A DNA stretch of 64,000 bases from Escherichia coli (lineage in GTDB: Bacteria; Pseudomonadota; Gammaproteobacteria; Enterobacterales; Enterobacteriaceae). The stretch is from NCBI RefSeq assembly GCF_024502345.1, contig NZ_JALDNN010000003.1; one strand, 5' to 3'. A program made the position numbers and the translations under genes. The notes beneath the pieces were generated by a model that did no database searches, was not told the DNA's origin, and saw nothing but the letters and a program-made list of their open reading frames with translations. How positions within the stretch are numbered: position 1 is the stretch's first letter; each line of letters opens with the position of its first letter. This document shows, piece after piece, positions 6,296 through 54,562 of the stretch.

Positions 6296-6553
6296 ATGAG
6301 CAATACAGATTCACAGACCGTACCAGCTGATGCCCTGTGTGAAAACAGTTCTCAGGTGAAAATTCAGCTAAGTCGAAGCGCCTCACGAGCATTGACGACG
6401 GCGAAAGAAATTCTTGAAACCCGAGGGCTGGTATCCGTATCCACTGAAGACCTTGTTCAGGCCTGTCTCGAAGAAAATCAGCCACTCGACCTGGCAAGTA
6501 TCTATCTTGAGCACCGGCTAAAACAGAAGGGAACCAGTATCTGTGAATTTTAG
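6296..6553 (+). CDS. hypothetical protein (85 aa)
   Basis: ATG at 6296 with GGAG about 10 nt upstream; overlaps the end of the preceding ORF in a coupled arrangement. Confidence 0.35.
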   Translation: MSNTDSQTVPADALCENSSQVKIQLSRSASRALTTAKEILETRGLVSVSTEDLVQACLEENQPLDLASIYLEHRLKQKGTSICEF

Positions 6554-6626
6554 TGTTTTCCAACCTATTGGGGAAATTCCGGAATGTGTTTATATAGCTG
6601 TAAGTAAAGCACTCTACAGGTAAATA

Positions 6627-7163
6627 ATGAAAAGCAAAATTCACTCTTCAGGAACGTCCGGCACGAAACGAGTACTTAAAACGGATATTGCGTTGCCTCT
6701 GCTTTGTTGGGTGTTCACCAGTCCATTCAGTAACTGGACTGATAAGTTTTTTACCGGCACAGAAGTGCCGGAGGGCTCGCTGCCGGGTCTAGAACAGGCG
6801 CCTGAGGCTATCTTCCGATTTGTGCTCAATGACGAAGGTTTTGATGTTGGTTTTGACGCGGTGGGAATGGATCTCTGTTGTTTCTCTATCCCGCTTTCGA
6901 CGATGCCCACAAAGAATCTGGACGACGAAGAGACGTTGTCGAGGCTTACCGGCGACGTGATACACGGCGTCCTGCTTTCGCTTCCGGAGTACATTGAAAT
7001 GCCAGACAGGCTGGTCTATCAGCTAACTGATGAGGTCATGGCGTTCAATTCACACTGTGGCAACGGAATTCTACATGGATGGACGACGGCTCAAGAGTTG
7101 TGGCGAAACGAGATCCTGCCACGCACCACTATTTTGATGCAGCAGACATCAGTCATTCACTGA
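6627..7163 (+). CDS. hypothetical protein (178 aa)
   Basis: ORF track; same strand as neighbours; no recognised domain. Confidence 0.4.
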   Translation: MKSKIHSSGTSGTKRVLKTDIALPLLCWVFTSPFSNWTDKFFTGTEVPEGSLPGLEQAPEAIFRFVLNDEGFDVGFDAVGMDLCCFSIPLSTMPTKNLDDEETLSRLTGDVIHGVLLSLPEYIEMPDRLVYQLTDEVMAFNSHCGNGILHGWTTAQELWRNEILPRTTILMQQTSVIH

Positions 7164-7179
7164 GTTCCGGGGGCTCTGG

Positions 7180-7635
7180 ATGAAAAAGCGACTTTACCTT
7201 CTTGAATGGAAACTTCGTGAGACAAGAGCCTGGTTAGGATGGATGGTGTTCTGGATTATCATCAGTTTTATGTTTTTATCAGCGATGCTCATGACAGGTC
7301 ATTTGTTAAACAAAGTTGTCCTCCAGCCCGTTTGGCTGTGTATCTGGTCTTTACCCTGGCTGGGCTTCTTGTTGAAGGTACGCGTGACCGAGATGGATAA
7401 AGGGCTCGTGAATACACTTCAGCTCGGAGATCTGCCGGTTTTCCGCTGGAGTCGTTCTGTAGTTCCTGGCACCTGGTCTGTTGACAGAATTAATGGACGC
7501 TACCGGTTGAACCGGATTGGAACGGATGGTTTGACGGTACACTATCCGTGGCGCCTGAACTATCAGCCTTTGTTCCTGACACCGGATAAGCAGATTTCTG
7601 ATATTAACGGACGTGAACATGAACGAAAATTCTGA
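7180..7635 (+). CDS. hypothetical membrane protein (151 aa)
   Basis: ORF track; two hydrophobic segments near the N-terminus (WLGWMVFWIIISFMFLSAMLM, VWLCIWSLPWLGFLL). Confidence 0.4.
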   Translation: MKKRLYLLEWKLRETRAWLGWMVFWIIISFMFLSAMLMTGHLLNKVVLQPVWLCIWSLPWLGFLLKVRVTEMDKGLVNTLQLGDLPVFRWSRSVVPGTWSVDRINGRYRLNRIGTDGLTVHYPWRLNYQPLFLTPDKQISDINGREHERKF

Positions 7636-7846
7636 CGCAGTAGTGAGTGCCGCTACTTCCTGCCTGCTGTATGTGCGTGAAATCGAAAGGTCAGGCCCCG
7701 GTGAAATGCCGGTGTCATATTCAAATGAGCTTATCCAGAGATGGCTTAGTTCGGCTGAACGTCGTAATTTGCATTCCCGCCACAGCTTGCGTTCGATTCG
7801 TACAATTCTGAAGCACGCAAGGAAGAGCCGTCAGCCTGATTTTTAG
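7613..7846 (+). CDS. hypothetical small protein (77 aa)
   Basis: ORF track; start overlaps the 3' end of the preceding ORF. Confidence 0.3.
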   Translation: MNMNENSDAVVSAATSCLLYVREIERSGPGEMPVSYSNELIQRWLSSAERRNLHSRHSLRSIRTILKHARKSRQPDF

Positions 7847-8216
7847 AGCGTGATGCATTTGCTGGTGGAAGGGAAGGGTGTAATCCCGGATGTTTCAGTA
7901 TCGGATTTGGGCAATGTGCAGAACATACGTAATGAACTGATTGGTCTGGATTGGTGGGTGAAGTTTGGTGTAAAGCAGGACTGGCAGCGCATCAATCTGC
8001 AACGCCAGCCGGTCAGTTTTGGCCTTTTGAATGACCCTAATCGTTGTTTTCGGCATGACGGTCAGCAGGTTGAACCTCTGCCACTTTATACAACCGGCAA
8101 TCCCGGGGAATTGCGGAAGGTGCTGTAAAAGTACAACTACCGGCTGCATATCGACTCTTCAGAAGTCGTTGAAGACGTAACGGTGTTGCGCTGCTTTATT
8201 GAAACCGGAGTGATGA

Positions 8217-9176
8217 ATGGCCAGTGAAGATTTACTCTTTTACCGTGACCGGATTCTGGAGCGAATTGAAAAGCTCAGATCCTTTCTGAATGACCATCAG
8301 CCGGTGATGGCCGAGCTGATGACTGTGGGGACCGTCACACGACACGAAGAGCGGTTGAAAGAGGTGAACCCCATCGAGGTGAGTACTATTTCAGATGCCT
8401 CCGTGGATGAAATTATCCGTGTTATTCAGGATTTCTGTATCGATGACATTGATGTACTCAGCAGGAATTCGACGAAAGTGACAACCAAATACCCGGGGTT
8501 GATTATTGTTCCTGAGGGTGCCGAACAGCTGAGCGGAATTATTTGCGATATAAATGATGCCAAAAGTGACTTTGCCTCTGCAATGAAAAGGGTGAATTCG
8601 GAGAAACACATCCGGTTTAAGGAAGTTCACCGTAAGCTTCCCGGTCTGGTGACTGCGCATTCCACTCGCAAAATTCTGTTTGTGGAAGAACAGCTCAAAA
8701 AAGTTACTTTTGCCTGGCGGCTAAACCGAAACCAGGTAAAAACAAACGCAAGTGATCTCATCGCGATGCTGGATAAGCGTCGTTTAGTAGCGGTCAAATC
8801 GCCCGTGACAACTGACCTGACAGTGGTGGCGAACATCGATAGAGCGAAGGCATTACTGGAAAGAAAAGTACTGAGAGACGGCGAAGGGTATCGCCTTTGT
8901 CGAACCAATACCTTCCCGGTTCCGATAGCGCATTTGTTCACATACCGGCCTGAAGGCAAGGAGCGTGGAAGTAGCAAATATGCCGAGACTGATTACAAGG
9001 TGGTGAAAGCCTCATTACCCATTTTTGGCGTCGGACAAAAGCCAACAATTAAAAGACTTCAGGACTGGGTGCCAGCGCAGGATGAAGCACTGTCCAATGG
9101 TCGAAGGAGCAACCATAGCTACACGGAACTTGTACCCGGTGCAGATCTTGGCATTTTCATTATGAGAAAGGTCTGA
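8217..9176 (+). CDS. Tus-like (replication terminus site-binding protein family) homologue, divergent
   Basis: ATG with GGAG 7 nt upstream; 319 aa; blocks recalled from E. coli Tus: [23 protein letters not shown] vs [32 protein letters not shown] vs [18 protein letters not shown] vs VRLPGVLCY; comparison is from memory. Confidence 0.5.
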   Translation: [319 protein letters not shown]

Positions 9177-9186
9177 GGAGAAAAGC

Positions 9187-10095
9187 ATGCAATGGATTTC
9201 CACGACCAGCCAGAAACTTGATGAGAGACTTTATCGTGTCTGTGTCTGGGTGAAAAAATACCATGAGGATGCCATCAACCGTGTTGTGTTGACGGTTGAT
9301 CTCAGTAAGGCCCGCCATGACCCGATAGAGGACCAGGTACGGGCCGAGTTACTGTGTGGGCATTATTTTCTGATGCGGAAAGAGAACAACGCAAAATCGG
9401 CGCCAGCGGATCAGAACTTTGAATTTTTGCCTGACGGCCGCAACCTGAGCTGGCAGACGTCGACACCGGGGCTTCAGCACCTTCTCCTGAACAGCAATGT
9501 ACCTGAGTCCCTTAGGCCCCTGGCTGATTACATTCAGATGCGTCTGGCCAAGCTGACCATGGTCCCGATGTCGGGAACCATCATGAAAGCCGCACTGGAA
9601 GACAGCATCAGCTGGGTAAAAGTGGATCTGCGATACTACTGGCAGTATGAACTGGTTAATTCCCATCTGGGGCCTGTTCAGGTAACTCATAAGGCGCTTG
9701 TGCGATTCGGGAGGCTGGCAAAACACGATGAAAACGCTAGTGCAATTCGAATGCTTCGCCAGCGGTTGTCATCACCGTTTATTCAGGAATTTGAGATGCC
9801 TGGGGAGGAGCTGAAGCGCAAGCAGAAGATCATGAATACCGTTGATGTGAAAATGCTTTTCCACACACATTATCCGGGCCAGAAATTACTGCTGGCCCGA
9901 TATGCTAATGGTTGGGTGCTGGTGGATTGTTTCCTGTTCCACCATATCAAACCCAAAAAGAAGGCGAAAAACAAAACCAAAGCGGGTAAATCAGAAACTC
10001 AAAATATCAAATCGACGGGGAGTGAGGATCATGGAACTGGGCATTATGGTGTGCATCGTGTTGTTACTCTCACTGGCAGCGGTGTGGATCAGTAA
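9187..10095 (+). CDS. hypothetical protein (302 aa) with lysine-rich C-terminal tail
   Basis: ORF track; begins 11 bp after the Tus-like stop; no recognised domain. Confidence 0.4.
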   Translation: MQWISTTSQKLDERLYRVCVWVKKYHEDAINRVVLTVDLSKARHDPIEDQVRAELLCGHYFLMRKENNAKSAPADQNFEFLPDGRNLSWQTSTPGLQHLLLNSNVPESLRPLADYIQMRLAKLTMVPMSGTIMKAALEDSISWVKVDLRYYWQYELVNSHLGPVQVTHKALVRFGRLAKHDENASAIRMLRQRLSSPFIQEFEMPGEELKRKQKIMNTVDVKMLFHTHYPGQKLLLARYANGWVLVDCFLFHHIKPKKKAKNKTKAGKSETQNIKSTGSEDHGTGHYGVHRVVTLTGSGVDQ

Positions 10096-10375
10096 CAAGA
10101 CGGTCGGATTGCTGGAAATCCATTACTTTAAGCGGCCGCTGAGCATGGAGTATGCAGCCTGGCTGCGTGTGATGTGTGCCGGTTTGCTATTTATTTTTAT
10201 TCAGATGGTCCCGGCATTCACGTTTCTGTATACCCTGAAGCTGGTGGCACTGTTAAATCTGGGCGTGCAGACGATGAAGCTAAACGGGGTTTATAAATTT
10301 AAACGCACCGGGATGATGCCGCCGAAAGACGCCCCTCATGATCTTGGCCGCTTTAATCCATTTCGAAAGAAGTAA
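10031..10375 (+). CDS. hypothetical small membrane protein (114 aa)
   Basis: ATG at 10031 preceded by GAGGA; two hydrophobic helices; overlaps the 3' end of 9187..10095 in another frame, so one of the two may be mis-called. Confidence 0.3.
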   Translation: MELGIMVCIVLLLSLAAVWISNKTVGLLEIHYFKRPLSMEYAAWLRVMCAGLLFIFIQMVPAFTFLYTLKLVALLNLGVQTMKLNGVYKFKRTGMMPPKDAPHDLGRFNPFRKK

Positions 10376-10521
10376 TCCTCATTAGCGCCCCGAAGGAGTA
10401 TATAGTAAAAACAGTGTCTATTCGCGTGTGAGTGAGTGACAGGGCTTTACATATAACGTCAGCGGCTTTCATTTCAAACGTACATACTGTGTATAATGGT
10501 ATGTACGTTTTTTATTTGCGC

Positions 10522-10739
10522 CGAGTCCTTCGGCGGTACCCGCCCGTGAACTCTGCCGCAAGCATGCCATTTCCGATGCCACGTTTTACACCTGGCGTAA
10601 GAAGTATGGCGGTATGGAGGTGCCTGAAGTTAAGCGCCTGAAGTCGCTTGAGGAAGAGAACGCCAGACTCAAGAAGCTGCTTGCCGAAGCCATGCTGGAT
10701 AAAGAGGCGCTTCAGGTGGCTCTTGGGCGAAAGTACTGA
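10522..10739 (+). pseudogene. IS3-family orfA remnant (5'-truncated, no start codon)
   Basis: In-frame translation matches the IS3-family OrfA C-terminus (FYTWRKKYGGM motif, leucine-zipper-like region); an upstream stop lies immediately before the first in-frame codon. Confidence 0.5.
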
Positions 10740-10762
10740 CGACAGACCAGAAGCGGGAAGCC

Positions 10763-11596
10763 GTGATGTTGATGTGTGATGCGACCGGTCTGTCGCAACG
10801 TCGTGCCTGCAGGCTTACAGGTTTATCCCTGTCGACCTGCCGCTATGAGGCTCACCGTCCGGCTGCTGATGCGCATTTATCAGGGCGCATCACTGAGCTG
10901 GCACTGGAGCGCAGGCGTTTTGGCTACCGTCGTATTTGGCAGTTGCTGCGCCGTGAAGGGCTTCATGTTAATCATAAGCGCGTGTACCGGCTTTATCACC
11001 TCAGTGGCCTGAGCGTAAAACGCAGAAGACGTCGTAAAGGGCTGGCAACAGAACGTCTGCCGCTGCTCCGTCCGGCGGCGCCCAATCTGACCTGGTCGAT
11101 GGATTTCGTCATGGACGCACTTTCCACCGGTCGCAGGATCAAGTGTCTTACCTGCGTCGATGATTTCACAAAGGAATGCCTGACGGTCACTGTTGCCTTT
11201 GGGATTTCAGGCGTTCAGGTCACGCGTATTCTGGACAGCATTGCACTGTTTCGAGGCTATCCGGCGACGATAAGAACTGACCAGGGGCCGGAGTTCACTT
11301 GCCGTGCACTGGATCAATGGGCCTTTGAGCATGGTGTTGAGTTGCGCTTAATCCAGCCGGGCAAGCCAACGCAGAACGGATTTATTGAGAGCTTTAACGG
11401 ACGATTTCGCGATGAATGTTTGAATGAGCACTGGTTCAGCGATATCGTTCATGCCAGGAAAATTATTAATGACTGGCGGCAGGATTATAACGAATGCCGC
11501 CCGCACTCCACGCTGAATTATCAGACACCGTCTGAATTTGCAGCGGGCTGGAGAAAGGGTCATTCTGAGAATGAAGATTCCGACGTTACTAACTGA
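10763..11596 (+). CDS. IS3-family transposase OrfB (DDE integrase-like catalytic domain)
   Basis: 277-aa ORF with motifs TDQGPEFT and [16 protein letters not shown] typical of IS3-family OrfB; frame is -1 relative to the orfA remnant. Confidence 0.7.
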
Positions 11597-11786
11597 GTGT
11601 TGTATCTAATCGTGGGGGCAGGTCACTTGGTCGGTGCCATGACGCGACTATTTTCAGGTGATTGCTGATACAACTCACAACAGGCTTGAGCAATGTCGCT
11701 CTTTGCCGTTTCGTGGAAGTGAATAGCCCCCGTACTTAGTTTTTCAGGCACGATACCTTGATTAATGAGCTTGGAGTATTCAGGAA

Positions 11787-12606
11787 GGCACTGTTGCAAA
11801 GTTAGCGATGAGGCAGCCTTTTGTCTTATTCAAAGGCCTTACATTTCAAAAACTCTGCTTACCAGGCGCATTTCGCCCAGGGGATCACCATAATAAAATG
11901 CTGAGGCCTGGCCTTTGCGTAGTGCACGCATCACCTCAATACCTTTGATGGTGGCGTAAGCCGTCTTCATGGATTTAAATCCCAGCGTGGCGTCGATTAT
12001 CCGTTTCAGTTTGCCATGATCGCATTCAATCACGTTGTTCCGGTACTTAATCTGTCGGTGTTCAACGTCAGACGGGCACCGGCCTTCGCGTTTGAGCAGA
12101 ACAAGCGCGCGACCATAGGCGGGCGCTTTATCCGTGTTGATGAATCGCGGGATCTGCCACTTCTTCACGTTGTTGAGGATTTTACCCAGAAACCGGTATG
12201 CAGCTTTGCTGTTACGACGGGAGGAGAGATAAAAATCGACAGTGCGGCCCCGGCTGTCGACGGCCCGGTACAGATACGCCCAGCGGCCATTGACCTTCAC
12301 GTAGGTTTCATCCATGTGCCACGGGCAAAGATCGGAAGGGTTACGCCAGTACCAGCGCAGCCGTTTTTCCATTTCAGGCGCATAACGCTGAACCCAGCGG
12401 TAAATCGTGGAGTGATCGACATTCACTCCGCGTTCAGCCTGCATCTCCTGCAGCTCACGGTAACTGATGCCGTATTTGCAGTACCAGCGTACGGCCCACA
12501 GAATGATGTCACGCTGAAAATGCCGGCCTTTGAATGGGTTCATGTGCAGCTCCATCAGCAAAAGGGGATGATAAGTTTATCACCACCGACTATTTGCAAC
12601 AGTGCC
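11787..12606 (-). mobile_element. IS26-family insertion sequence, variant allele, inverted relative to the other two copies
   Basis: 820 bp bounded by 14-bp inverted repeats GGCACTGTTGCAAA / TTTGCAACAGTGCC; Tnp differs from the other two copies at three residues (EMQAERG vs EMLAERG; ALVLLK vs ALALLK; IIDATLG vs IIGATLG). Confidence 0.95.
11839..12543 (-). CDS. tnpA: IS26-family transposase Tnp26 (234 aa)
   Basis: MNPFKGRHFQRDIILWAVRWYCKYGISYRELQEM... matches the IS26/IS6-family transposase recalled from memory; start taken at the MNPFKG methionine. Confidence 0.95.
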   Translation of the reverse strand: MNPFKGRHFQRDIILWAVRWYCKYGISYRELQEMQAERGVNVDHSTIYRWVQRYAPEMEKRLRWYWRNPSDLCPWHMDETYVKVNGRWAYLYRAVDSRGRTVDFYLSSRRNSKAAYRFLGKILNNVKKWQIPRFINTDKAPAYGRALVLLKREGRCPSDVEHRQIKYRNNVIECDHGKLKRIIDATLGFKSMKTAYATIKGIEVMRALRKGQASAFYYGDPLGEMRLVSRVFEM

Positions 12607-12807
12607 GTTAATTCTGCTGGCGGTAGTCGTTTGGTTTACCCTGCCAGAGAGGAAAATACGGCAATTGGGCAAACAGCGTGCCACACCTCACTGATTAGGG
12701 TGTGGTTAACACTTCATTAATTAAACAGTCATTACTCTTACTTAACTGTGTGATATACCTATTTAGGGTTTGAAACATTAGAGTTTGAAATAGGTAAGGT
12801 CTGAGCA

Positions 12808-13953
12808 ATGACTGAGCAAACGTCCCCCGCACAACTTGATCTCGATAGCGCGGCTCAGCCCCCCAGAGTTTATATCCGGGGGGACTGGGTGTTGGCGCAT
12901 TACTGCGTTTTGGAGCCGCGCGTTGCGCAATTGCGCGCTAATATGCCCAGTGGGGGGGTATTTGATCTCAACCAACTGGGGGCGTTAGATACCGCCGGTG
13001 CAACGTTGTTAGCTCTGCTTCTGGGTGAGGACCGTGTAGCAAATTTACGCGAACTTGCGCCTAAATTGCCAGAAGAGCGGAGGATATTACTTGAAACGGT
13101 AAGCCATGTATTGCCTGACTTAACCCCTGAGTTGTCTGAAAAACCCACACGGTTTTGGCTTGAGATGCTGGCTAATACCGGCCGTTCGGTAGATAACTTA
13201 TGGCAAGATATTAAGTCACTATTGGGCTTTATTGGTCTGGCGCTGGAAACCTTGCTGGGAACACTTTTTCGCCCCTCCCGCTGGCGCATTACCTCATTAA
13301 TTGCCAATATTCAACAGATTGGCCTCAATGCTGTGCCGATCATTATGTTGCTCACCTTTTTGGTGGGGGCAGTTATCGCCTTTCTCGGTGCAACCGTACT
13401 CACTACTTTCGGCGCGGGCATTTTTACCGTCGATTTGGTGGTATTTTCTTTTCTACGTGAATTTGCGGTACTGCTTACCGCGATCCTGATGGCAGGGCGA
13501 ACAGCCAGTGCTTTTACCGCTGAAATTGGCTTGATGAAAGCCAATGAAGAGATTGATGCTATCCAAACACTGGGCTTGAATCCGGTCGAACTGTTGGTGC
13601 TACCGCGCGTCTTGGCACTATTGATCTCTCTGCCGATGCTAACCTTTATTGGCATGGTTTGCGGTATTTTCGGTGGCATGGTGGTGTGTGCCTTAACACT
13701 GGATATCTCTCCCACTATGTTTTTGTCGATTATGCAAAACAGTAATGGGTTGCAGCATTTTCTGGTGGGAATAAGTAAAGCCCCTATTTTTGCTTTCCTG
13801 ATTGCTATTATTGGCTGTCTGGAGGGGTTCAAAGTAACCGGTAGTGCTGAATCAGTCGGGGTTCATACCACCACCAGTGTGGTGCATTCGATCTTTGTGG
13901 TGATTTTGCTTGATGCCGTGGCAGCGCTATTTTTCATGGAAATGGGGTGGTGA
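12808..13953 (+). CDS. ABC transporter permease, MlaE family, with N-terminal STAS-like domain
   Basis: 381 aa; soluble N-terminal ~110 aa followed by multi-helix permease region (AVPIIMLLTFLVGAVIAFLGATVLTTFGAG...) typical of MlaE/YrbE permeases. Confidence 0.8.
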   Translation: MTEQTSPAQLDLDSAAQPPRVYIRGDWVLAHYCVLEPRVAQLRANMPSGGVFDLNQLGALDTAGATLLALLLGEDRVANLRELAPKLPEERRILLETVSHVLPDLTPELSEKPTRFWLEMLANTGRSVDNLWQDIKSLLGFIGLALETLLGTLFRPSRWRITSLIANIQQIGLNAVPIIMLLTFLVGAVIAFLGATVLTTFGAGIFTVDLVVFSFLREFAVLLTAILMAGRTASAFTAEIGLMKANEEIDAIQTLGLNPVELLVLPRVLALLISLPMLTFIGMVCGIFGGMVVCALTLDISPTMFLSIMQNSNGLQHFLVGISKAPIFAFLIAIIGCLEGFKVTGSAESVGVHTTTSVVHSIFVVILLDAVAALFFMEMGW

Positions 13954-13958
13954 GCCAA

Positions 13959-14750
13959 ATGACGCAAGATGCAATCATTCAAATTCGCGATCTGGTTAAC
14001 TGCTTTGGCGTACAGTGCGTGCATCAAGGGTTGAATCTTGATGTTAAGCGCGGCGAAGTTCTTGGCGTGGTTGGTGGCTCGGGTACCGGTAAATCTGTTC
14101 TGTTACGCAGTATTGTTGGGTTACGTCGTCCGACTGACGGGAAAATTCATGTTTTTGGCAAGGATTTAATGGCACTGTCAGGTCAATCCCGCGCCATGGT
14201 CGAGCGCCGATTCGGCGTATTATTTCAACGAGGCGCACTGTTCAGTTCTCTAACCGTGACCGAGAACGTGGCATTACCATTAATAGAAAACGCCGGATTA
14301 CCCCGGTCTGAGGCTGAGCGATTGGCTCAGGTTAAACTGGCACTGGCTGGGCTACCGCCGGGCACTGGCAGTAAGTATCCAGCATCTCTGTCGGGTGGTA
14401 TGGTCAAGCGTGTTGCGCTAGCCCGTGCCTTAGCACTGGACCCGGATATTCTGTTTCTTGATGAACCGACTGCGGGTCTTGATCCCATTGGTGCGGCGGC
14501 GTTTGACAGTTTGATCCGCACCCTGCGGGATGCCCTCAATCTAACGGTATTCTTGGTGACCCACGATCTGGATACGCTGTATACACTGTGTGATCGTGTG
14601 GCGGTGCTTTCGCAGAAAAAAGTGCTGGTGGTTGATACTCTGGATAAAGTTGCAGCGACTGATGATGGCTGGATTCAGGCGTATTTTCATGGCCCACGTG
14701 GCCGGGCTGCTTATCAGGCAGCGGCAATTAACAGTGGAGAGAGGTTGTAA
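13959..14750 (+). CDS. ABC transporter ATP-binding protein (MlaF-like)
   Basis: Walker A GGSGTGKS, ABC signature LSGGMVKRVALARAL, Walker B ILFLDEPTAGLD; ATG at 13959 follows the permease stop. Confidence 0.85.
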   Translation: MTQDAIIQIRDLVNCFGVQCVHQGLNLDVKRGEVLGVVGGSGTGKSVLLRSIVGLRRPTDGKIHVFGKDLMALSGQSRAMVERRFGVLFQRGALFSSLTVTENVALPLIENAGLPRSEAERLAQVKLALAGLPPGTGSKYPASLSGGMVKRVALARALALDPDILFLDEPTAGLDPIGAAAFDSLIRTLRDALNLTVFLVTHDLDTLYTLCDRVAVLSQKKVLVVDTLDKVAATDDGWIQAYFHGPRGRAAYQAAAINSGERL

Positions 14751-14751
14751 T

Positions 14752-15690
14752 ATGGAAACCCGTGCTCATCATGTCGTTATTGGTTTGTTCACTCTTATTG
14801 TGGTGAGTGCCGCGCTGCTGTTTTGCCTATGGCTGACAAATTCCGGTTCTGATCGCCAGTTCAGATTGTACGATATCGTTTTCAATGAGCCTGTGAGTGG
14901 CCTGTCACAGGGTAGCACCGTTCAGTACAGCGGGATTCGAGTCGGTGAGGTGACGCAATTACGCCTGGACCGAGACAATCCGAATAAGGTTTGGGCACGT
15001 ATTCGCGTTTCTGCATCTACTCCGATACGCGAAGATACCCAAGCTCGTCTCACCGTCGCGGGTATTACCGGCACCTCAAATATTCAATTCAGCAGTGGCA
15101 GCCAGACCAGCCCGTTGCTGGAGGGCAAAGATGACGAGGTTCCTATCATTATTGCTACCCCTTCGCCGATGAGCCAGTTACTGGCTAACGGTGAGAATTT
15201 CATGACCAATGCGAATGAAGTGTTGGTGCGTTTGAACCAGTTGCTGGCACCGGATAACCAGCAGCGCCTAGTAACGACACTGGATAATCTCGCGCTGGTC
15301 ACCCAAACTGTGGCTGATCAACGTGGTGATCTCCGTACCCTGTTGCAGCAGTTGGCGCAGGCCAGTAAACAGGCTAATGAGACACTGACTCAAACCAATC
15401 GCCTGCTGCGTAATGCTAACGGCTTAATGGATGGGCAGGGGAAACAACTGGTCAGTGATGCCGCCAAAACCATGGCATCGTTGCAAAATACCAGTACCAT
15501 CCTCAATAAATTGGTGAGTGAAAATAAAACCTCACTCAATAACGGGATGCAAGGGATGAATGAGCTGGGGCCGGCAGTAGATGAGCTGCGCAGAACATTA
15601 GCGACATTACGTGCCGCCGTTTCTCGTTTGGAAGAAAACCCAGCGGCCTTGTTGCGCGGCCGTGAAAGAACACAGGAGTTTACGCCTTAA
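14752..15690 (+). CDS. MCE-domain (MlaD/PqiB-like) periplasmic substrate-binding protein
   Basis: ATG at 14752 with GGAGAGAGG upstream; N-terminal single TM helix (HHVVIGLFTLIVVSAALLFCLWL) followed by an MCE-like domain and a Q/L-rich coiled-coil tail. Confidence 0.75.
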   Translation: METRAHHVVIGLFTLIVVSAALLFCLWLTNSGSDRQFRLYDIVFNEPVSGLSQGSTVQYSGIRVGEVTQLRLDRDNPNKVWARIRVSASTPIREDTQARLTVAGITGTSNIQFSSGSQTSPLLEGKDDEVPIIIATPSPMSQLLANGENFMTNANEVLVRLNQLLAPDNQQRLVTTLDNLALVTQTVADQRGDLRTLLQQLAQASKQANETLTQTNRLLRNANGLMDGQGKQLVSDAAKTMASLQNTSTILNKLVSENKTSLNNGMQGMNELGPAVDELRRTLATLRAAVSRLEENPAALLRGRERTQEFTP

Positions 15691-16331
15691 TGCTCTCTTT
15701 TAATGTGATGCGCTATGCAGGCCGCCGCGTGTGGCTATTGATGATATCCGGGGGGGCGATACTGCTCTCTGCCTGCACCATTTTACCTTCGGCCCCTGTA
15801 TCACAAGTTTATCTTCTGCCGGTGCCACCTGCAGTCAGTGTGCCACACGCGCAGACAGTAAACTGGTCATTACGGGTTTCACAACCGGCGACGAACCAGT
15901 TTCTTAATAGCTCACGCATAGCGGTGCAGCCTCAGGGCCAGGAGATTGCGGTTTATAAAAACTCCCGTTGGAGTGATTCGGCGCCGATTTTGGTGCGCAA
16001 TCGTCTTATTCAGGCGTTCCGTAGCGATGGGCGAATCCGTGCAGTCAGTAGCGACGATGATAGCTTGCAGGCTGATGTGGAGTTGAGTGGTGATCTGTCC
16101 GCGTTCCAAGGGGTATACCATGTTGGTAGCAGCGAAGTGCTGATCCGTTTTGATGCTCGGCTGGTAAGAATTTCAGATCGTAGGATTATTGCGACTCGCC
16201 AGTTTGACATTCGCCAACCGATAAAAGGTAACGAGATGAACGAGGTGGTTCAGGCCTTTGGCCTGGCCAGTGACCAGTTAGCCACTCAAGTGCTCAACTG
16301 GACGATGCAGCAATCCCCTGCGCAGGGTTGA
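15690..16331 (+). CDS. ABC-transport auxiliary lipoprotein (lipobox LLSAC)
   Basis: Start overlaps the preceding stop (TAATG coupling); signal peptide with lipobox LLSAC; position and size fit the lipoprotein partner of MCE systems. Confidence 0.6.
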   Translation: MLSFNVMRYAGRRVWLLMISGGAILLSACTILPSAPVSQVYLLPVPPAVSVPHAQTVNWSLRVSQPATNQFLNSSRIAVQPQGQEIAVYKNSRWSDSAPILVRNRLIQAFRSDGRIRAVSSDDDSLQADVELSGDLSAFQGVYHVGSSEVLIRFDARLVRISDRRIIATRQFDIRQPIKGNEMNEVVQAFGLASDQLATQVLNWTMQQSPAQG

Positions 16332-16349
16332 TATCTAAACCAGCACCGG

Positions 16350-16395
16350 TTGGTTTTATCTGAGGCGAGTTGGCAGTAGCTAACTCGCCTTTTTT
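16350..16395 (+). terminator. putative intrinsic terminator of the Mla/MCE-like operon
   Basis: Hairpin GGCGAGTT...AACTCGCC followed by TTTTTT shortly after the stop at 16331; coordinates approximate. Confidence 0.5.
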
Positions 16396-16678
16396 ATCGT
16401 CTAGTTTAATGATTCAAGGCGAATAATTGCGTCTAAGGGGAAAATATTCTCTTTATTGTTTTGTGATTAGTATCTCATTGAGTAAGGGATTAATGGTGTT
16501 TGAGTTATCTATTTCATTGTTTTTAATATGTTTTTATTTAAATTGTTCTGTGGTTATCTTTTTTGTTAAAGAGAACAATATTCTCCAAGCATTAAAAACA
16601 ACAAGAAAATAGGAAAAGTATTTCTCCCCGTAAAACCCTAAGATAAAAATAATCCAAATCACTGATTAATTACTTCAA

Positions 16679-17956
16679 ATGCAAAAAATAACACATCAAC
16701 AATTACTCGATTGGTTGAAAAAGGAAGTGAAACTTTCATTAGGTTGTACTGAGCCTATTGCTATTGCGTATGCTGCCGCAGTGGCTGCTAAATATCTCAA
16801 CGCACCGATATTAAAAATAACGGGGAATATATCGGAGAATCTGTATAAAAATGCGATGGGAGTCACTATTCCGGGAACAAGCTATTGCGGAGTCACTCTT
16901 GCGGCGGCAATAGGGGCTATTGGTGGTAACGCGGATGCCGATTTAGAAGTATTAAAAGATATTACTGCGACACAAATTACCGAAGCCTATATATTTAATG
17001 AATCAGGTAACGTGTGTCTAAACGCAGTAGATGCTACGGATTTTATTTTTATCGATATTACGCTATATAGTCTTAGTGATCAGTGCCGGGTAGTGATTCA
17101 AGGTAGCCATACTAATGTCACTGAAGTTTATATTAATAATATAAAGCAAATATTAGTCCGAGACCTAATTGCCGCCAATGATAGTGGGGTACTACCCGAA
17201 TTTTCCCTTAACGACGCATTTAAATTTGTAACCGATGTCGCCGCTAAAGACATCATGTTTATGCTGAAAAGTGCTGAGATTAATACCGCGCTTTCTGACG
17301 AGGGGCAAAGGAAGAACTATGGTTTGAACGTGAGTGGCGCGTTGTCGCAAGCCAGAAAAAATGGCTTTATCAGCACTGACTTACTGAGTCAAATGTTGAT
17401 CAACACCACTGCGGCATCAGATGCCCGTATGGGCGGCGCACCCTTACCCGCGATGTCAAATTATGGCTCTGGTAATCAGGGGATTACCGTGACAATGCCG
17501 GTAGTGACACTTGCCCGACATCTTAATACAGATGATGAAACACTGGCCCGGGCATTAGCGTTGGCCCATCTAGCCGCAATCTCAATTCATATGCGTTATA
17601 CCCGATTGTCTGCATTGTGTGCGGCGTCAACGGCAGCAATGGGGGCGGCGGCAGGTATGAGTTGGTTATTGACCCAAGATTTTCAAACTATCTCCTACGC
17701 GGTCAGTAATATGATCAGTGATATTAGTGGCATTATTTGCGATGGTGCATCAAATAGTTGTGCCATGAAAGTGTCTACCGCTACCGCCTGTGCATTTAAG
17801 TCGGTGTTGATGGCGCAACAAAATAGTGTTGCAGGGGAGCGTGATGGCATTGTTTCCTGCGATGTTGAAGGTTCTATCAATAATTTATGTAAATTAGTGT
17901 TATCGCCAATGAGGCAAACAGATAAAGAAATTATCAGTATAATGACACGTAAATAA
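16679..17956 (+). CDS. L-cysteine desulfidase CyuA/YhaM-family (serine dehydratase-like) protein
   Basis: 425 aa; N-terminal blocks LSLGCTEPIAIAYAAAVAA and GVTIPGTSYCG match the YhaM/CyuA family recalled from memory; AT-rich gene after a long AT-rich leader. Confidence 0.7.
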   Translation: MQKITHQQLLDWLKKEVKLSLGCTEPIAIAYAAAVAAKYLNAPILKITGNISENLYKNAMGVTIPGTSYCGVTLAAAIGAIGGNADADLEVLKDITATQITEAYIFNESGNVCLNAVDATDFIFIDITLYSLSDQCRVVIQGSHTNVTEVYINNIKQILVRDLIAANDSGVLPEFSLNDAFKFVTDVAAKDIMFMLKSAEINTALSDEGQRKNYGLNVSGALSQARKNGFISTDLLSQMLINTTAASDARMGGAPLPAMSNYGSGNQGITVTMPVVTLARHLNTDDETLARALALAHLAAISIHMRYTRLSALCAASTAAMGAAAGMSWLLTQDFQTISYAVSNMISDISGIICDGASNSCAMKVSTATACAFKSVLMAQQNSVAGERDGIVSCDVEGSINNLCKLVLSPMRQTDKEIISIMTRK

Positions 17957-18037
17957 ATATTACGGTTTAACCGCGTGGCCTAACGTCATTATTAATAATG
18001 ATCGGCGGGCTATCGTTAAAATTTAAAGGGACAAATA

Positions 18038-18557
18038 ATGAGCAAATCAAAATCGATCGCGACTCTGGTTATCCATGCCGGAGATCAAGTTGACCGGGGC
18101 AATAATGCTATTTTTCCACCGATTACTACCGCCAGTTCCTTCATTCAGCCAAATTTAGGCGAAGAAGGGGAGTTTTGTTATTCCCGTTGCAGTAACCCGA
18201 CAAGATATGCATATGAAACCGCCTTGGCTGAGTTGGAAGGAGGTATCTATGCTACGGCAACCGCTTCCGGTATGGCAGCAACTGCACTTATATTGGAATT
18301 GCTACCTAAGGATTCCCATGTATTAGTAATGAAAGGGGTCTATGGCGGTACTTATCGGTTGTTTGAACGTCTGCGTAAACAAACTTCAGGTACGACATTC
18401 AGTTATGTCGATCTTAATGATCTGGCGTCAGTAGAGCGCCATATTCAAGAGAATACAGGTCTAATCTGGATCGAAACGCCCACTAACCCACTGTTGGAAT
18501 TAGTTGATATTGAAGCAGTATGCCAGGTTGCCAAAAGCAGGGGCATAATGAGCTGCG
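18038..18557 (+). pseudogene. PLP-dependent cystathionine beta-lyase/gamma-synthase family gene, 3'-truncated by IS1
   Basis: N-terminal ~173 aa of a MetB/MetC-family enzyme (LVIHAGDQ..., SRCSNPTRYAYETALAELEGG, GLIWIETPTNPLL); the reading frame runs directly into the IS1 left end. Confidence 0.7.
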
Positions 18558-18612
18558 GGTGATGCTGCCAACTTACTGATTTAGTGTATGATGGTGTTTT
18601 TGAGGTGCTCCA

Positions 18613-18888
18613 GTGGCTTCTGTTTCTATCAGCTGTCCCTCCTGTTCAGCTACTGACGGGGTGGTGCGTAACGGCAAAAGCACCGCCGGACATCAGCGCT
18701 ATCTCTGCTCTCACTGCCGTAAAACATGGCAACTGCAGTTCACTTACACCGCTTCTCAACCCGGTACGCACCAGAAAATCATTGATATGGCCATGAATGG
18801 CGTTGGATGCCGGGCAACCGCCCGCATTATGGGCGTTGGCCTCAACACGATTTTCCGCCATTTAAAAAACTCAGGCCGCAGTCGGTAA
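18613..18888 (+). CDS. insA: IS1 InsA
   Basis: [43 protein letters not shown]... matches IS1 InsA. Confidence 0.9.
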
Positions 18889-19310
18889 CCTCGCGCATAC
18901 AGCCGGGCAGTGACGTCATCGTCTGCGCGGAAATGGACGAACAGTGGGGATACGTCGGGGCTAAATCGCGCCAGCGCTGGCTGTTTTACGCGTATGACAG
19001 GCTCCGGAAGACGGTTGTGGCGCACGTATTCGGTGAACGCACTCTGGCCACACTGGAGCGTCTTCTGAGCCTGCTGTCGGCCTTTGAGGTCGTGGTATGG
19101 ATGACGGATGGCTGGCCGCTGTATGAATCCCGCCTGAAGGGAAAGCTGCACGTTATCAGCAAGCGTTACACTCAGCGCATTGAGCGACATAACCTGAATC
19201 TGAGACAACATCTGGCAAGGCTGGGACGGAAGTCACTGTCGTTCTCAAAATCGGTGGAGCTGCATGACAAGGTCATCGGGCATTATCTGAACATAAAACA
19301 CTATCATTAA
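18807..19310 (+). CDS. insB: IS1 InsB reading frame (expressed as InsAB' by -1 frameshift)
   Basis: Frame encodes ...[28 protein letters not shown]... characteristic of IS1 InsB. Confidence 0.85.
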
Positions 19311-19412
19311 GTTGGAGTCATTACCAGAGTTTATTGTCAAATAAAAAGGCAGATTTCTCTGCCTTAATACACAATATACATAGTTCAAGGTACTATATAT
19401 AACGCAGGGGCG

Positions 19413-20603
19413 CTACTCATCCAGCGCCTCACGCATGAACTTCGTCATCGCTTTCTTACCTGCGTCAATGTTACGGATATAGCGGGAAACCATTTCTGCA
19501 TTGCTCCAGTTACCCATCTCCATGATCTGCAAGTGCGTGTACCCGGCATCAGCAAGTTCGATGGCGCCGCCAACCCTAACGCTGTGACCAGTCCAGCATC
19601 GGGTGCCCGCTTCCTGCGGATGAAGTTCATCCCAAAACGCTTCAAAGGCCCGGAGCAATGTGTTTTTACTGAGCATACCCTCATCATCGACAATAATGGG
19701 CTTTCCATTTTTCCCGATCGGGGGGCGGGTAGGTCGGTAAGGCATATTATGATTTTTCAGCAGCGTATTGATCTCATTCCCTTTGCTCCGGAGACCCCAT
19801 CCAGGGGGCATATATCCGCTGTCCTGAAAGTTAACTGCCTGGAAGAGATAATCCTTCGGATGGCTTTGCTGGTCCCTTTTGACCATACCCATCAGCCTGA
19901 TTAGGGTGGCAGTGAGATGAGGGGTCAGATGATAGGTAAGCAGGGTACTGACAGTGGATTTTGTCCGGTACACCGTCAGGGTAAAACTGCCTGTCTGTTC
20001 ATTCAGCACAAGGTCCTGCATCCGAATGCGCCGAAGTTCTGCTGAGCGCAACAGTGTTTCAAAACCTGTCCAGATAATGCAAAGGTCTCGGAGTTTGCGC
20101 ACCGACTGTGTCGTACCGTGGGCTTTAATCAAAGCTTTCAGGTCGGAGACTAGGAATGGCGTTGCCTGACGAGTCACTTTTTGCTCTCGGGCTTCAGCTT
20201 GTTCGAGGCTTGCAAGAATACTCTTGACCTTGGATGTGATGATCCCAGGGCGATCGAGTGCTTTCCTATGGATACTGTTCAGCGCGTGCAGACAACCTTT
20301 AATGCTGCTGTGTGACAGCGAGCCCTGAAGATAGTCCAGATAGGACAACAACGGGGGTTGAGTCACCGGGAGAGAACTGGCAGGCCAGGCTTCGTTTCCC
20401 TCCTTTCCTGCATTAGCTTGGTACCACTCGTTCCAGGAACGCAGCCATTGAAGGTAAGTTTTAGCCGTGTGGTATTTCATATGAGAAAAGTAAAAAATGA
20501 GCTCCTTAAGGTCATTATTGGGCACCTCAAACGTGACCAGTTCCTGATGGAGGTCTGAGTCTTCAAACTGTCTGGTTACTGGCTTGCTGTTCATGGTGGT
20601 CAC
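19413..20603 (-). CDS. tyrosine site-specific recombinase (phage-type integrase)
   Basis: 396 aa; C-terminal catalytic region HSVRVGGAIELADAGYTHLQIMEMGNWSNAEMVSRYIRN fits the R..HxxR..Y tyrosine-recombinase pattern. Confidence 0.85.
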   Translation of the reverse strand: MTTMNSKPVTRQFEDSDLHQELVTFEVPNNDLKELIFYFSHMKYHTAKTYLQWLRSWNEWYQANAGKEGNEAWPASSLPVTQPPLLSYLDYLQGSLSHSSIKGCLHALNSIHRKALDRPGIITSKVKSILASLEQAEAREQKVTRQATPFLVSDLKALIKAHGTTQSVRKLRDLCIIWTGFETLLRSAELRRIRMQDLVLNEQTGSFTLTVYRTKSTVSTLLTYHLTPHLTATLIRLMGMVKRDQQSHPKDYLFQAVNFQDSGYMPPGWGLRSKGNEINTLLKNHNMPYRPTRPPIGKNGKPIIVDDEGMLSKNTLLRAFEAFWDELHPQEAGTRCWTGHSVRVGGAIELADAGYTHLQIMEMGNWSNAEMVSRYIRNIDAGKKAMTKFMREALDE

Positions 20604-47568: not shown

Positions 47569-48388
47569 GGCACTGTTGCAAATAGTCGGTGGTGATAAAC
47601 TTATCATCCCCTTTTGCTGATGGAGCTGCACATGAACCCATTCAAAGGCCGGCATTTTCAGCGTGACATCATTCTGTGGGCCGTACGCTGGTACTGCAAA
47701 TACGGCATCAGTTACCGTGAGCTGCAGGAGATGCTGGCTGAACGCGGAGTGAATGTCGATCACTCCACGATTTACCGCTGGGTTCAGCGTTATGCGCCTG
47801 AAATGGAAAAACGGCTGCGCTGGTACTGGCGTAACCCTTCCGATCTTTGCCCGTGGCACATGGATGAAACCTACGTGAAGGTCAATGGCCGCTGGGCGTA
47901 TCTGTACCGGGCCGTCGACAGCCGGGGCCGCACTGTCGATTTTTATCTCTCCTCCCGTCGTAACAGCAAAGCTGCATACCGGTTTCTGGGTAAAATCCTC
48001 AACAACGTGAAGAAGTGGCAGATCCCGCGATTCATCAACACGGATAAAGCGCCCGCCTATGGTCGCGCGCTTGCTCTGCTCAAACGCGAAGGCCGGTGCC
48101 CGTCTGACGTTGAACACCGACAGATTAAGTACCGGAACAACGTGATTGAATGCGATCATGGCAAACTGAAACGGATAATCGGCGCCACGCTGGGATTTAA
48201 ATCCATGAAGACGGCTTACGCCACCATCAAAGGTATTGAGGTGATGCGTGCACTACGCAAAGGCCAGGCCTCAGCATTTTATTATGGTGATCCCCTGGGC
48301 GAAATGCGCCTGGTAAGCAGAGTTTTTGAAATGTAAGGCCTTTGAATAAGACAAAAGGCTGCCTCATCGCTAACTTTGCAACAGTGCC
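47569..48388 (+). mobile_element. IS26 copy 2
   Basis: 820 bp with 14-bp IRs GGCACTGTTGCAAA / TTTGCAACAGTGCC; Tnp identical to copy 3 in translation. Confidence 0.95.
47632..48336 (+). CDS. tnpA: IS26 transposase Tnp26
   Basis: 234-aa IS6-family transposase beginning MNPFKGRHFQRDIILWAV. Confidence 0.95.
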   Translation: MNPFKGRHFQRDIILWAVRWYCKYGISYRELQEMLAERGVNVDHSTIYRWVQRYAPEMEKRLRWYWRNPSDLCPWHMDETYVKVNGRWAYLYRAVDSRGRTVDFYLSSRRNSKAAYRFLGKILNNVKKWQIPRFINTDKAPAYGRALALLKREGRCPSDVEHRQIKYRNNVIECDHGKLKRIIGATLGFKSMKTAYATIKGIEVMRALRKGQASAFYYGDPLGEMRLVSRVFEM

Positions 48389-53742: not shown

Positions 53743-54562
53743 GGCACTGTTGCAAATAGTCGGTGGTGATAAACTTATCATCCCCTTTTGCTGATGGAGC
53801 TGCACATGAACCCATTCAAAGGCCGGCATTTTCAGCGTGACATCATTCTGTGGGCCGTACGCTGGTACTGCAAATACGGCATCAGTTACCGTGAGCTGCA
53901 GGAGATGCTGGCTGAACGCGGAGTGAATGTCGATCACTCCACGATTTACCGCTGGGTTCAGCGTTATGCGCCTGAAATGGAAAAACGGCTGCGCTGGTAC
54001 TGGCGTAACCCTTCCGATCTTTGCCCGTGGCACATGGATGAAACCTACGTGAAGGTCAATGGCCGCTGGGCGTATCTGTACCGGGCCGTCGACAGCCGGG
54101 GCCGCACTGTCGATTTTTATCTCTCCTCCCGTCGTAACAGCAAAGCTGCATACCGGTTTCTGGGTAAAATCCTCAACAACGTGAAGAAGTGGCAGATCCC
54201 GCGATTCATCAACACGGATAAAGCGCCCGCCTATGGTCGCGCGCTTGCTCTGCTCAAACGCGAAGGCCGGTGCCCGTCTGACGTTGAACACCGACAGATT
54301 AAGTACCGGAACAACGTGATTGAATGCGATCATGGCAAACTGAAACGGATAATCGGCGCCACGCTGGGATTTAAATCCATGAAGACGGCTTACGCCACCA
54401 TCAAAGGTATTGAGGTGATGCGTGCACTACGCAAAGGCCAGGCCTCAGCATTTTATTATGGTGATCCCCTGGGCGAAATGCGCCTGGTAAGCAGAGTTTT
54501 TGAAATGTAAGGCCTTTGAATAAGACAAAACGCTGCCTCATCGCTAACTTTGCAACAGTGCC
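53743..54562 (+). mobile_element. IS26 copy 3
   Basis: 820 bp with the same 14-bp IRs; interrupts a molybdoenzyme gene on its right side. Confidence 0.95.
53806..54510 (+). CDS. tnpA: IS26 transposase Tnp26
   Basis: Identical in translation to copy 2. Confidence 0.95.
   Translation: MNPFKGRHFQRDIILWAVRWYCKYGISYRELQEMLAERGVNVDHSTIYRWVQRYAPEMEKRLRWYWRNPSDLCPWHMDETYVKVNGRWAYLYRAVDSRGRTVDFYLSSRRNSKAAYRFLGKILNNVKKWQIPRFINTDKAPAYGRALALLKREGRCPSDVEHRQIKYRNNVIECDHGKLKRIIGATLGFKSMKTAYATIKGIEVMRALRKGQASAFYYGDPLGEMRLVSRVFEM

Follow-up and report, generated by a model that had tools for sequence, protein, structure and literature searches.

A remnant of a GMT-island RecD2-like helicase gene between ISSen4 and IS26 in Escherichia coli

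The fragment and its parent gene

The window, the whole stretch of Escherichia coli DNA that was analysed, is 64,000 nucleotides long (NCBI RefSeq assembly GCF_024502345.1, contig NZ_JALDNN010000003.1). Between an IS3-family element and IS26 it contains a short coding-like sequence, with the following features:

10541..11625, plus strand: ISSen4 (IS3 family), 5'-truncated, about nt 143-1227 of 1227, annotated ISSen4 in relatives
11626..11786, minus strand: internal remnant of a GMT-island RecD2-like helicase gene, nt 1499-1659 of 2166, that is codons 501-553 of 721 plus 2 nt of codon 500
11787..12606, minus strand (tnp26): IS26, 820 bp, its tnp26-distal end GGCACTGTTGCAAAGTTAGCG abutting helicase nt 1499
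11623..11799, minus strand: chimeric 58-codon ORF reading MQQCLPEYSKLINQGIVPEKLSTGAIHFHETAKSDIAQACCELYQQSPENSRVMAPTK, from the ORF list and the junction sequences

A preliminary description of the locus, given for 11597-11786, noted a stop-free minus-strand frame at about 11640-11786. The frame is there, since ORF 11623..11799 contains the peptide that had been read from it, and the interval was right as far as 11626-11786 is concerned, these 161 bp of the minus strand being the gene-derived DNA. The other part, 11597-11625, is the last 29 bp of ISSen4, ending ...GGGGGCAGGTCA at 11625, and on the opposite side IS26 begins at 11787 with GGCACTGTTGCAAA. The IS3-family neighbour named in that description is present as ISSen4, with the refinement that the element is itself truncated and lacks about its first 140 nt.

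Comparison by BLAST with the Shewanella IncC plasmid NZ_CP096164.1 (L003) showed that window 11786-11626 is identical at 161 of 161 nt to plasmid positions 7999-8159 (E = 2e-79), which lie inside an intact gene of 2166 nt and 721 aa (6501-8666), and alignment placed the fragment in the reading frame of this helicase gene, at codons 501-553 of the parent. A database match had been proposed as the check on the fragment, and one was also found at the protein level, where tblastn of the peptide against plasmid records returned matches with 100% identity (E = 6e-30) that are annotated 'AAA family ATPase' or 'ATP-dependent RecD-like DNA helicase'. The parent protein contains the domains HHH_RecD2, AAA_30, SH3_13 and UvrD_C_2, all of them shared with Deinococcus radiodurans RecD2 (PDB 3E1S/3GP8), and its residues 343-714 align to structure 3E1S with E = 2.5e-31, whereas the window fragment covers residues 501-553 only. 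The best NCBIfam model for the parent is RecD2 (E = 8e-111), and its score of 371 bits is below the 500-bit cut-off of the equivalog, so the protein is called RecD2-like here rather than a RecD2 equivalog. The helicase family is large, with 1532 matches at E <= 1e-20, mostly from marine Gammaproteobacteria, and other plasmids carry scattered pieces of the parent gene (nt 1-1454, 1-1506 and 1656-2011).

When the fragment was tested as a functional SF1B helicase it failed, as every motif located in the parent (Walker A at 362, DEASM at 433, GDPDQLPP at 460, KRQK at 492, HKAQGSQF at 652 and a further motif at 679) falls outside residues 501-553, and 53 of the 721 codons are left. Having no helicase motif within it, the fragment cannot encode a helicase. 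It is almost certainly a dead internal piece of a GMT-island RecD2-like SF1B helicase gene, a non-functional relic.

The gutted GMT island and its insertion site

Gamma-Mobile-Trio (GMT) islands, of which VPaI-6 of Vibrio parahaemolyticus is a named example, carry gmtYZX at the 5' border, insert at naive inverted-repeat sites, form a circular intermediate and transfer replicatively (Mahata et al., bioRxiv 10.1101/2023.03.28.534373). In islands with GMT annotation the parent helicase directly follows gmtY-gmtZ-gmtX-VPA1267 and is the fifth gene of a module consisting of gmtY, gmtZ (VPA1269 family), gmtX, a VPA1267-family gene and the helicase. This module was found in the Shewanella IncC plasmid L003 (1273-8666), Citrobacter plasmid pCFR-4109 (L007), a Providencia IncC plasmid (L012) and Vibrio MAO6 (L013), and the cargo of these islands is entirely different. 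In V. vulnificus (L011), again with different cargo, the VPA1269-family gene and the helicase are present and no gene is annotated gmtY or gmtX. Recombinase genes likewise precede the pair of VPA1267-family gene and helicase in a marine metagenome contig and in Endozoicomonas (L016/L017). The reading frames of the VPA1267-family protein (Pfam PF28121) and the RecD2-like helicase overlap or adjoin after the GMT recombinase genes in seven records (L003, L007, L011, L012, L013, L016 and L017). Given that GMT islands transfer replicatively, the pair may be part of the transfer machinery; the main text of the GMT preprint (bioRxiv 10.1101/2023.03.28.534373) does not mention 'helicase', 'RecD', 'ATPase' or 'VPA1267'. 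The helicase was also considered as defence cargo on the strength of generic RecD-like PADLOC matches (typeIV_RecD, PDC-S68), and this was dropped because the gene keeps its position after gmtX-VPA1267 though the cargo differs completely.

A BLAST comparison of L003 with the whole window gave three colinear, reverse-oriented matches, to the sequence upstream of gmtY (window 19403-19329), to the helicase fragment and to the far end of the island (10541-10384). The fragment thus lies within a gutted GMT island of about 9 kb, window 10396-19403, in reverse orientation and with both conserved termini present, the remaining parts of which are as follows:

10384..10395: left half of the insertion site, inverted-repeat arm AGCGCCCC and spacer GAAG, from alignment
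10396..10540, minus strand: right-end relic of the island, 145 bp, starting at the conserved terminus GAGTATATAGTAAAAAC
12607..18555, plus strand: passenger segment with MlaE/MlaF/MlaD-like ABC transporter genes and L-serine ammonia-lyase, from ORFs and the annotation of relatives
18556..19325: IS1 truncating the left end of the island, from BLAST against IS1 in L010 and L014, with terminal repeat GGTAATGACTCCAACTTA and an IS1 family transposase annotated in L008
19326..19403, minus strand: left-end relic of the island, 78 bp, cut by IS1 and ending at the conserved terminus ...GGTACTATATATAAC
19404..19414: right half of the insertion site, spacer GCA(G) and inverted-repeat arm GGGGCGCT, from alignment

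The island order from left to right is right-end relic, truncated ISSen4, helicase fragment, IS26, Mla-like/L-serine ammonia-lyase segment, IS1 and left-end relic. The fragment had been described as an orphan, which is correct in that it is an isolated scrap of a gene and incorrect in that two colinear relics of the same island, its termini at 10396-10540 and 19326-19403, accompany it. In a five-way alignment that sets the window beside islands from Citrobacter, from an E. coli chromosome and from the IncC plasmids of Shewanella and Salmonella, the right-end relic matches the Citrobacter and E. coli versions at every position as far as the deletion joint. The left-end relic aligns with the sequence upstream of gmtY in L003 and L007 and is 172 bp long in a Citrobacter plasmid (L014). 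The conserved termini themselves, GTTATATATAGTACC... on the left and ...GTTTTTACTATATACTC on the right, were aligned with those of L003, L007, L014, L002 and the chromosome of E. coli 873.10 (L018). BLAST identities of 95-97% had raised the possibility that the ends represent a divergent variant, which was rejected as the mismatches fall in the arms of the insertion site and the termini are identical to the Citrobacter/E. coli version.

Compared with other GMT islands, the window copy keeps both conserved termini in an inverted-repeat site and retains only 161 bp of the helicase. The genes gmtY, gmtZ and gmtX are absent, as the two gmtY-gmtX carriers L003 and L007, compared with the whole window by BLAST, match only the termini, the helicase fragment and IS26. 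The place of gmtYZX, VPA1267 and the 5' part of the helicase is filled by the passenger segment, which is 100% identical to positions 6087-12805 of L014. The window island is a gutted derivative that cannot be autonomous. IncFII, IncHI and Citrobacter-type plasmids share this junction of IS26 with the Mla-like segment, in their case with a further 159 bp, and it is suggested that the segment travels with IS26.

The island lies in an IncHI-type backbone, with a small ORF (9902-10375) on its left and a tyrosine recombinase gene (19413-20603) on its right. Its flanks, TTAGCGCCCCGAAG on the left and GCAGGGGCGCTA on the right, form an inverted repeat, and the uninterrupted empty site TTAGCGCCCGCAGGGGCGCTA is found in pHCM1 (L009) and pHCM1-type IncHI1 plasmids, an artificial join of the empty site being covered to at least 80% in 271 plasmid records. 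Inverted-repeat arms around the island and an empty site in relatives are the picture of a naive GMT site. Each of the five insertion sites compared (window, L003, L007, L014 and L018) is a short, GC-rich inverted repeat that follows the pattern (A/C)GCCC(C)-spacer-(G)GGGC(G/T) and resembles a terminator hairpin at the downstream side of a gene; that of the E. coli chromosome is located just downstream of pykF. A relaxed site preference of this kind, the comparison suggests, lets the island enter many replicons.

The IS26 and ISSen4 junctions

At the right-hand break of the fragment, the 14-bp terminal repeat of IS26, GGCACTGTTGCAAA, starts directly after helicase nt 1499. The reciprocal junction was found in Klebsiella pneumoniae plasmid CP110759.1 (L005), where nt 1-1506 of the gene are joined to the opposite end of IS26 (GGCACTGTTGCAAATAGTCGG) and overlap the window fragment by exactly 8 bp, TTCCTGAA. 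In the chromosome of E. coli 873.10, IS26 is still in situ between helicase nt 1128-1506 and 1499-1659, with TTCAGGAA on both sides. These reciprocal junctions with their 8-bp duplication show that IS26 made the right-hand cut by simple insertion, of which the window preserves one half. Within the window the IS26 flanks, TTCAGGAA and GTTAATTC, differ and there is no 8-bp duplication, indicating that the far side of the element has been rearranged. IS26 inserted into the helicase gene at nt 1499-1506 and duplicated TTCCTGAA, and in the window the DNA beyond its far side has been replaced by the Mla-like/SdaA segment. Compared with other plasmids, the window also misses 159 bp adjoining IS26. 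An apparent 18-bp extension of the helicase past IS26 in L014, seen by BLAST, was rejected as noise, the 159 bp there being unrelated.

Two further IS26 copies are present in the window (47569-48388 and 53743-54562), and the copy next to the fragment differs from both by 3 nt, altering Tnp26 residues. None of the three copies has matching 8-bp flanks, so all of them have been involved in rearrangements. The cut resembles that of IS26-bounded remnants in the multiresistance regions of plasmids in the 14-bp repeat at the break, in an 8-bp duplication that can be recovered from reciprocal junctions and in the deletions on the other side of the IS. It differs in that the gene cut here is a mobile-island helicase instead of a resistance or transposon gene, and there is otherwise nothing unusual about it.

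At the other break, the intact right inverted repeat of ISSen4 abuts helicase nt 1659, while the left inverted repeat and the start of orfA are missing with the first ~140 nt. The element was recognised by its terminal repeat ...GGGGGCAGGTCA at 11625 and by an IS1222-type frameshift element, both shared with ISSen4 / IS1222-like elements, the latter matching the Rfam ribosomal frameshift family IS1222_FSE at 10706-10823 (156.6 bits); the window copy differs in lacking the first ~140 nt, and a full-length ISSen4 of 1227 bp is present in L014. The deletion joint to the last 145 bp of the island shows GGTA microhomology. No reciprocal junction or flanking direct repeat of ISSen4 was found in any copy examined. 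The left end of full ISSen4 copies (L014, L018 and L019) is flanked by ATAG or ATGG, not by CAAG/CTTG, and by unrelated DNA. With no target duplication and with unrelated DNA at the left end, a simple ISSen4 insertion cannot be proven. The sequence does show that an ISSen4 copy is joined through its right inverted repeat to helicase nt 1659, that the 161 bp between ISSen4 and IS26 survived, and that ISSen4 has lost its first ~140 nt by the deletion that joined it to the last 145 bp of the island. A literature search on ISSen4 returned nothing relevant to the helicase junction.

A junction related to the one at window 11621-11629 is present in Klebsiella oxytoca plasmid CP056500.1 (L006, 3990-4010), in which the right end of an IS 87.8% identical to ISSen4 is joined to the helicase in the opposite orientation at the same CAAG. 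This junction, again a right end, overlaps the window fragment by the 4 bp CAAG, nt 1656-1659, and a flanking direct repeat was found neither at ISSen4 in the window nor at the L006 element. The presence of two related IS at the same CAAG could reflect a target hot spot or an unreconstructed rearrangement. They were also considered as the two arms of one composite transposon at CAAG, an idea that is not supported, as the DNA next to the left end of ISSen4 (L014 3441-3730) has no match in L006. The view that a real gene had been cut on both sides by insertion sequences is borne out by the parent gene, by the reciprocal IS26 junctions with their 8-bp duplication and by the ISSen4 terminal inverted repeat at the other edge.

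History of the block and coding capacity of the fragment

The exact junction was found in at least 76 plasmid records (coverage of at least 80%) and, among 5426 complete E. coli genomes, in 16; identity is 99% or above in nearly every case, a pattern that suits recent spread better than selection. An interior 99.8-100% identical to that of the window occurs in large Citrobacter and Enterobacter plasmids at another inverted-repeat site (AAAACGCCCC...GGGCGTTTT), in copies that have a full-length ISSen4 and longer end relics, and the right half of the island is also present in the chromosome of E. coli 873.10 (NZ_CP061754.1), between pykF and lpp. The helicase in that chromosome is interrupted, its pieces still colinear, by IS66 (8-bp overlap, nt 580-587), an IS3/IS629 cluster (3-bp overlap, nt 1128-1130), IS26 (8-bp duplication) and ISSen4; the island there keeps gmtX and VPA1267, gmtY and gmtZ are absent, and IS1B adjoins gmtX.

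It is an even call whether the fragment decayed in place or arrived already trapped between ISSen4 and IS26, either because copies of the island or of an IS on different replicons recombined or because an already damaged island transposed; the question concerns the history of the fragment only, not its identity. Arrival is favoured by the ISSen4-fragment-IS26 block itself, which occupies a different insertion site in each of the Citrobacter plasmids (L010 and L014) and the E. coli chromosome and is 99.7-99.8% identical there, and by the further stretch IS26-Mla-SdaA-IS1, which is 100% identical in Citrobacter plasmids only. In addition, no IncHI record among the matches listed has gmtY at the site, all four of the listed E. 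coli plasmids with the shortest relic have only a 75-bp aligned left-end relic (at least two of them, NZ_CP061755.1 and NZ_CP049968.1, sharing the IncHI backbone), and E. coli 873.10 holds both a chromosomal and an IncHI plasmid copy of the island. However, the window has three further deletions relative to the Citrobacter version, of 709 bp at ISSen4, 159 bp by IS26 and 94 bp by IS1, indicating that some decay occurred in the lineage of the window plasmid.

There is a smaller chance that the gutted island, which has lost gmtYZX and kept both termini, was moved in trans as a non-autonomous derivative by the recombinases of a second island. This somewhat improbable course would explain how the same gutted interior came to lie at different sites in Citrobacter and IncHI plasmids and the right half with a disrupted helicase at a third, in the E. 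coli chromosome; if true, it would mean that destruction of the helicase does not stop the island from moving. A simpler alternative, equally open, is that copies of the island or of an IS recombined between co-resident replicons, and homology for recombination between resident islands is available in IS26, IS1 and up to 172 bp of the island end.

In the 58-codon ORF, the TTG start and the first 4 codons are supplied by the IS26 terminal repeat, 53 codons by the helicase and the TGA stop by the ISSen4 terminal repeat. That it is expressed as a small protein, or that its transcript acts as a functional RNA, is very unlikely. The frame is intact, PGAP calls it in some genomes as the 'hypothetical protein' WP_156174661.1, and the identical junction recurs in many plasmids; however, most annotations of matching records leave the fragment uncalled, and the sequence is the same because the block, with 99.8-100% identity over kilobases, spread clonally. 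A scan of 11400-12000 found no sigma-70-like promoter and no terminator-like site, and an Rfam scan of 10000-20000 found no family besides the IS frameshift element. The start codon is a TTG within the IS26 repeat, the peptide is a 53-residue slice between helicase motifs, and the 90% protein cluster to which the 58-aa product belongs is made up of other truncated pieces of helicase, named hypothetical protein, AAA ATPase (partial) or RecD-like helicase. The missing promoter, terminator and RNA family, the start and stop supplied by IS termini and the cluster of truncated pieces all support an absence of function. The fragment, reduced to residues 501-553 with no helicase motif and no detectable promoter, probably does nothing, and its persistence would be due to its being locked between two insertion sequences and travelling in a recently spread block.

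The least tenable reading, already refuted, is that of a chance open frame with no gene behind it: 58 open codons are expected at (61/64)^58 = 0.06 per frame in random sequence, so that openness is unremarkable and the case for a gene origin rests on homology, which is given by the in-frame identity at 161 of 161 nt to the annotated 721-aa helicase gene, the tblastn match at E = 6e-30 and homologues with 49-85% amino-acid identity in Vibrio, Photobacterium and Providencia plasmids.

The fragment is an ordinary pseudogene remnant that is already explained, as the gene family, the island type and the IS borders are all known. Annotators should label it a helicase pseudogene remnant instead of a 'hypothetical protein' and should count it as a GMT-island relic instead of plasmid backbone. 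The ISSen4-161 bp-IS26 junction is a lineage marker of the block in IncHI plasmids, large Citrobacter and Enterobacter plasmids and some E. coli chromosomes. In the wider context, GMT islands reach the plasmids of clinical Enterobacterales and are then dismantled by IS26, IS1, IS66 and IS3-family elements.
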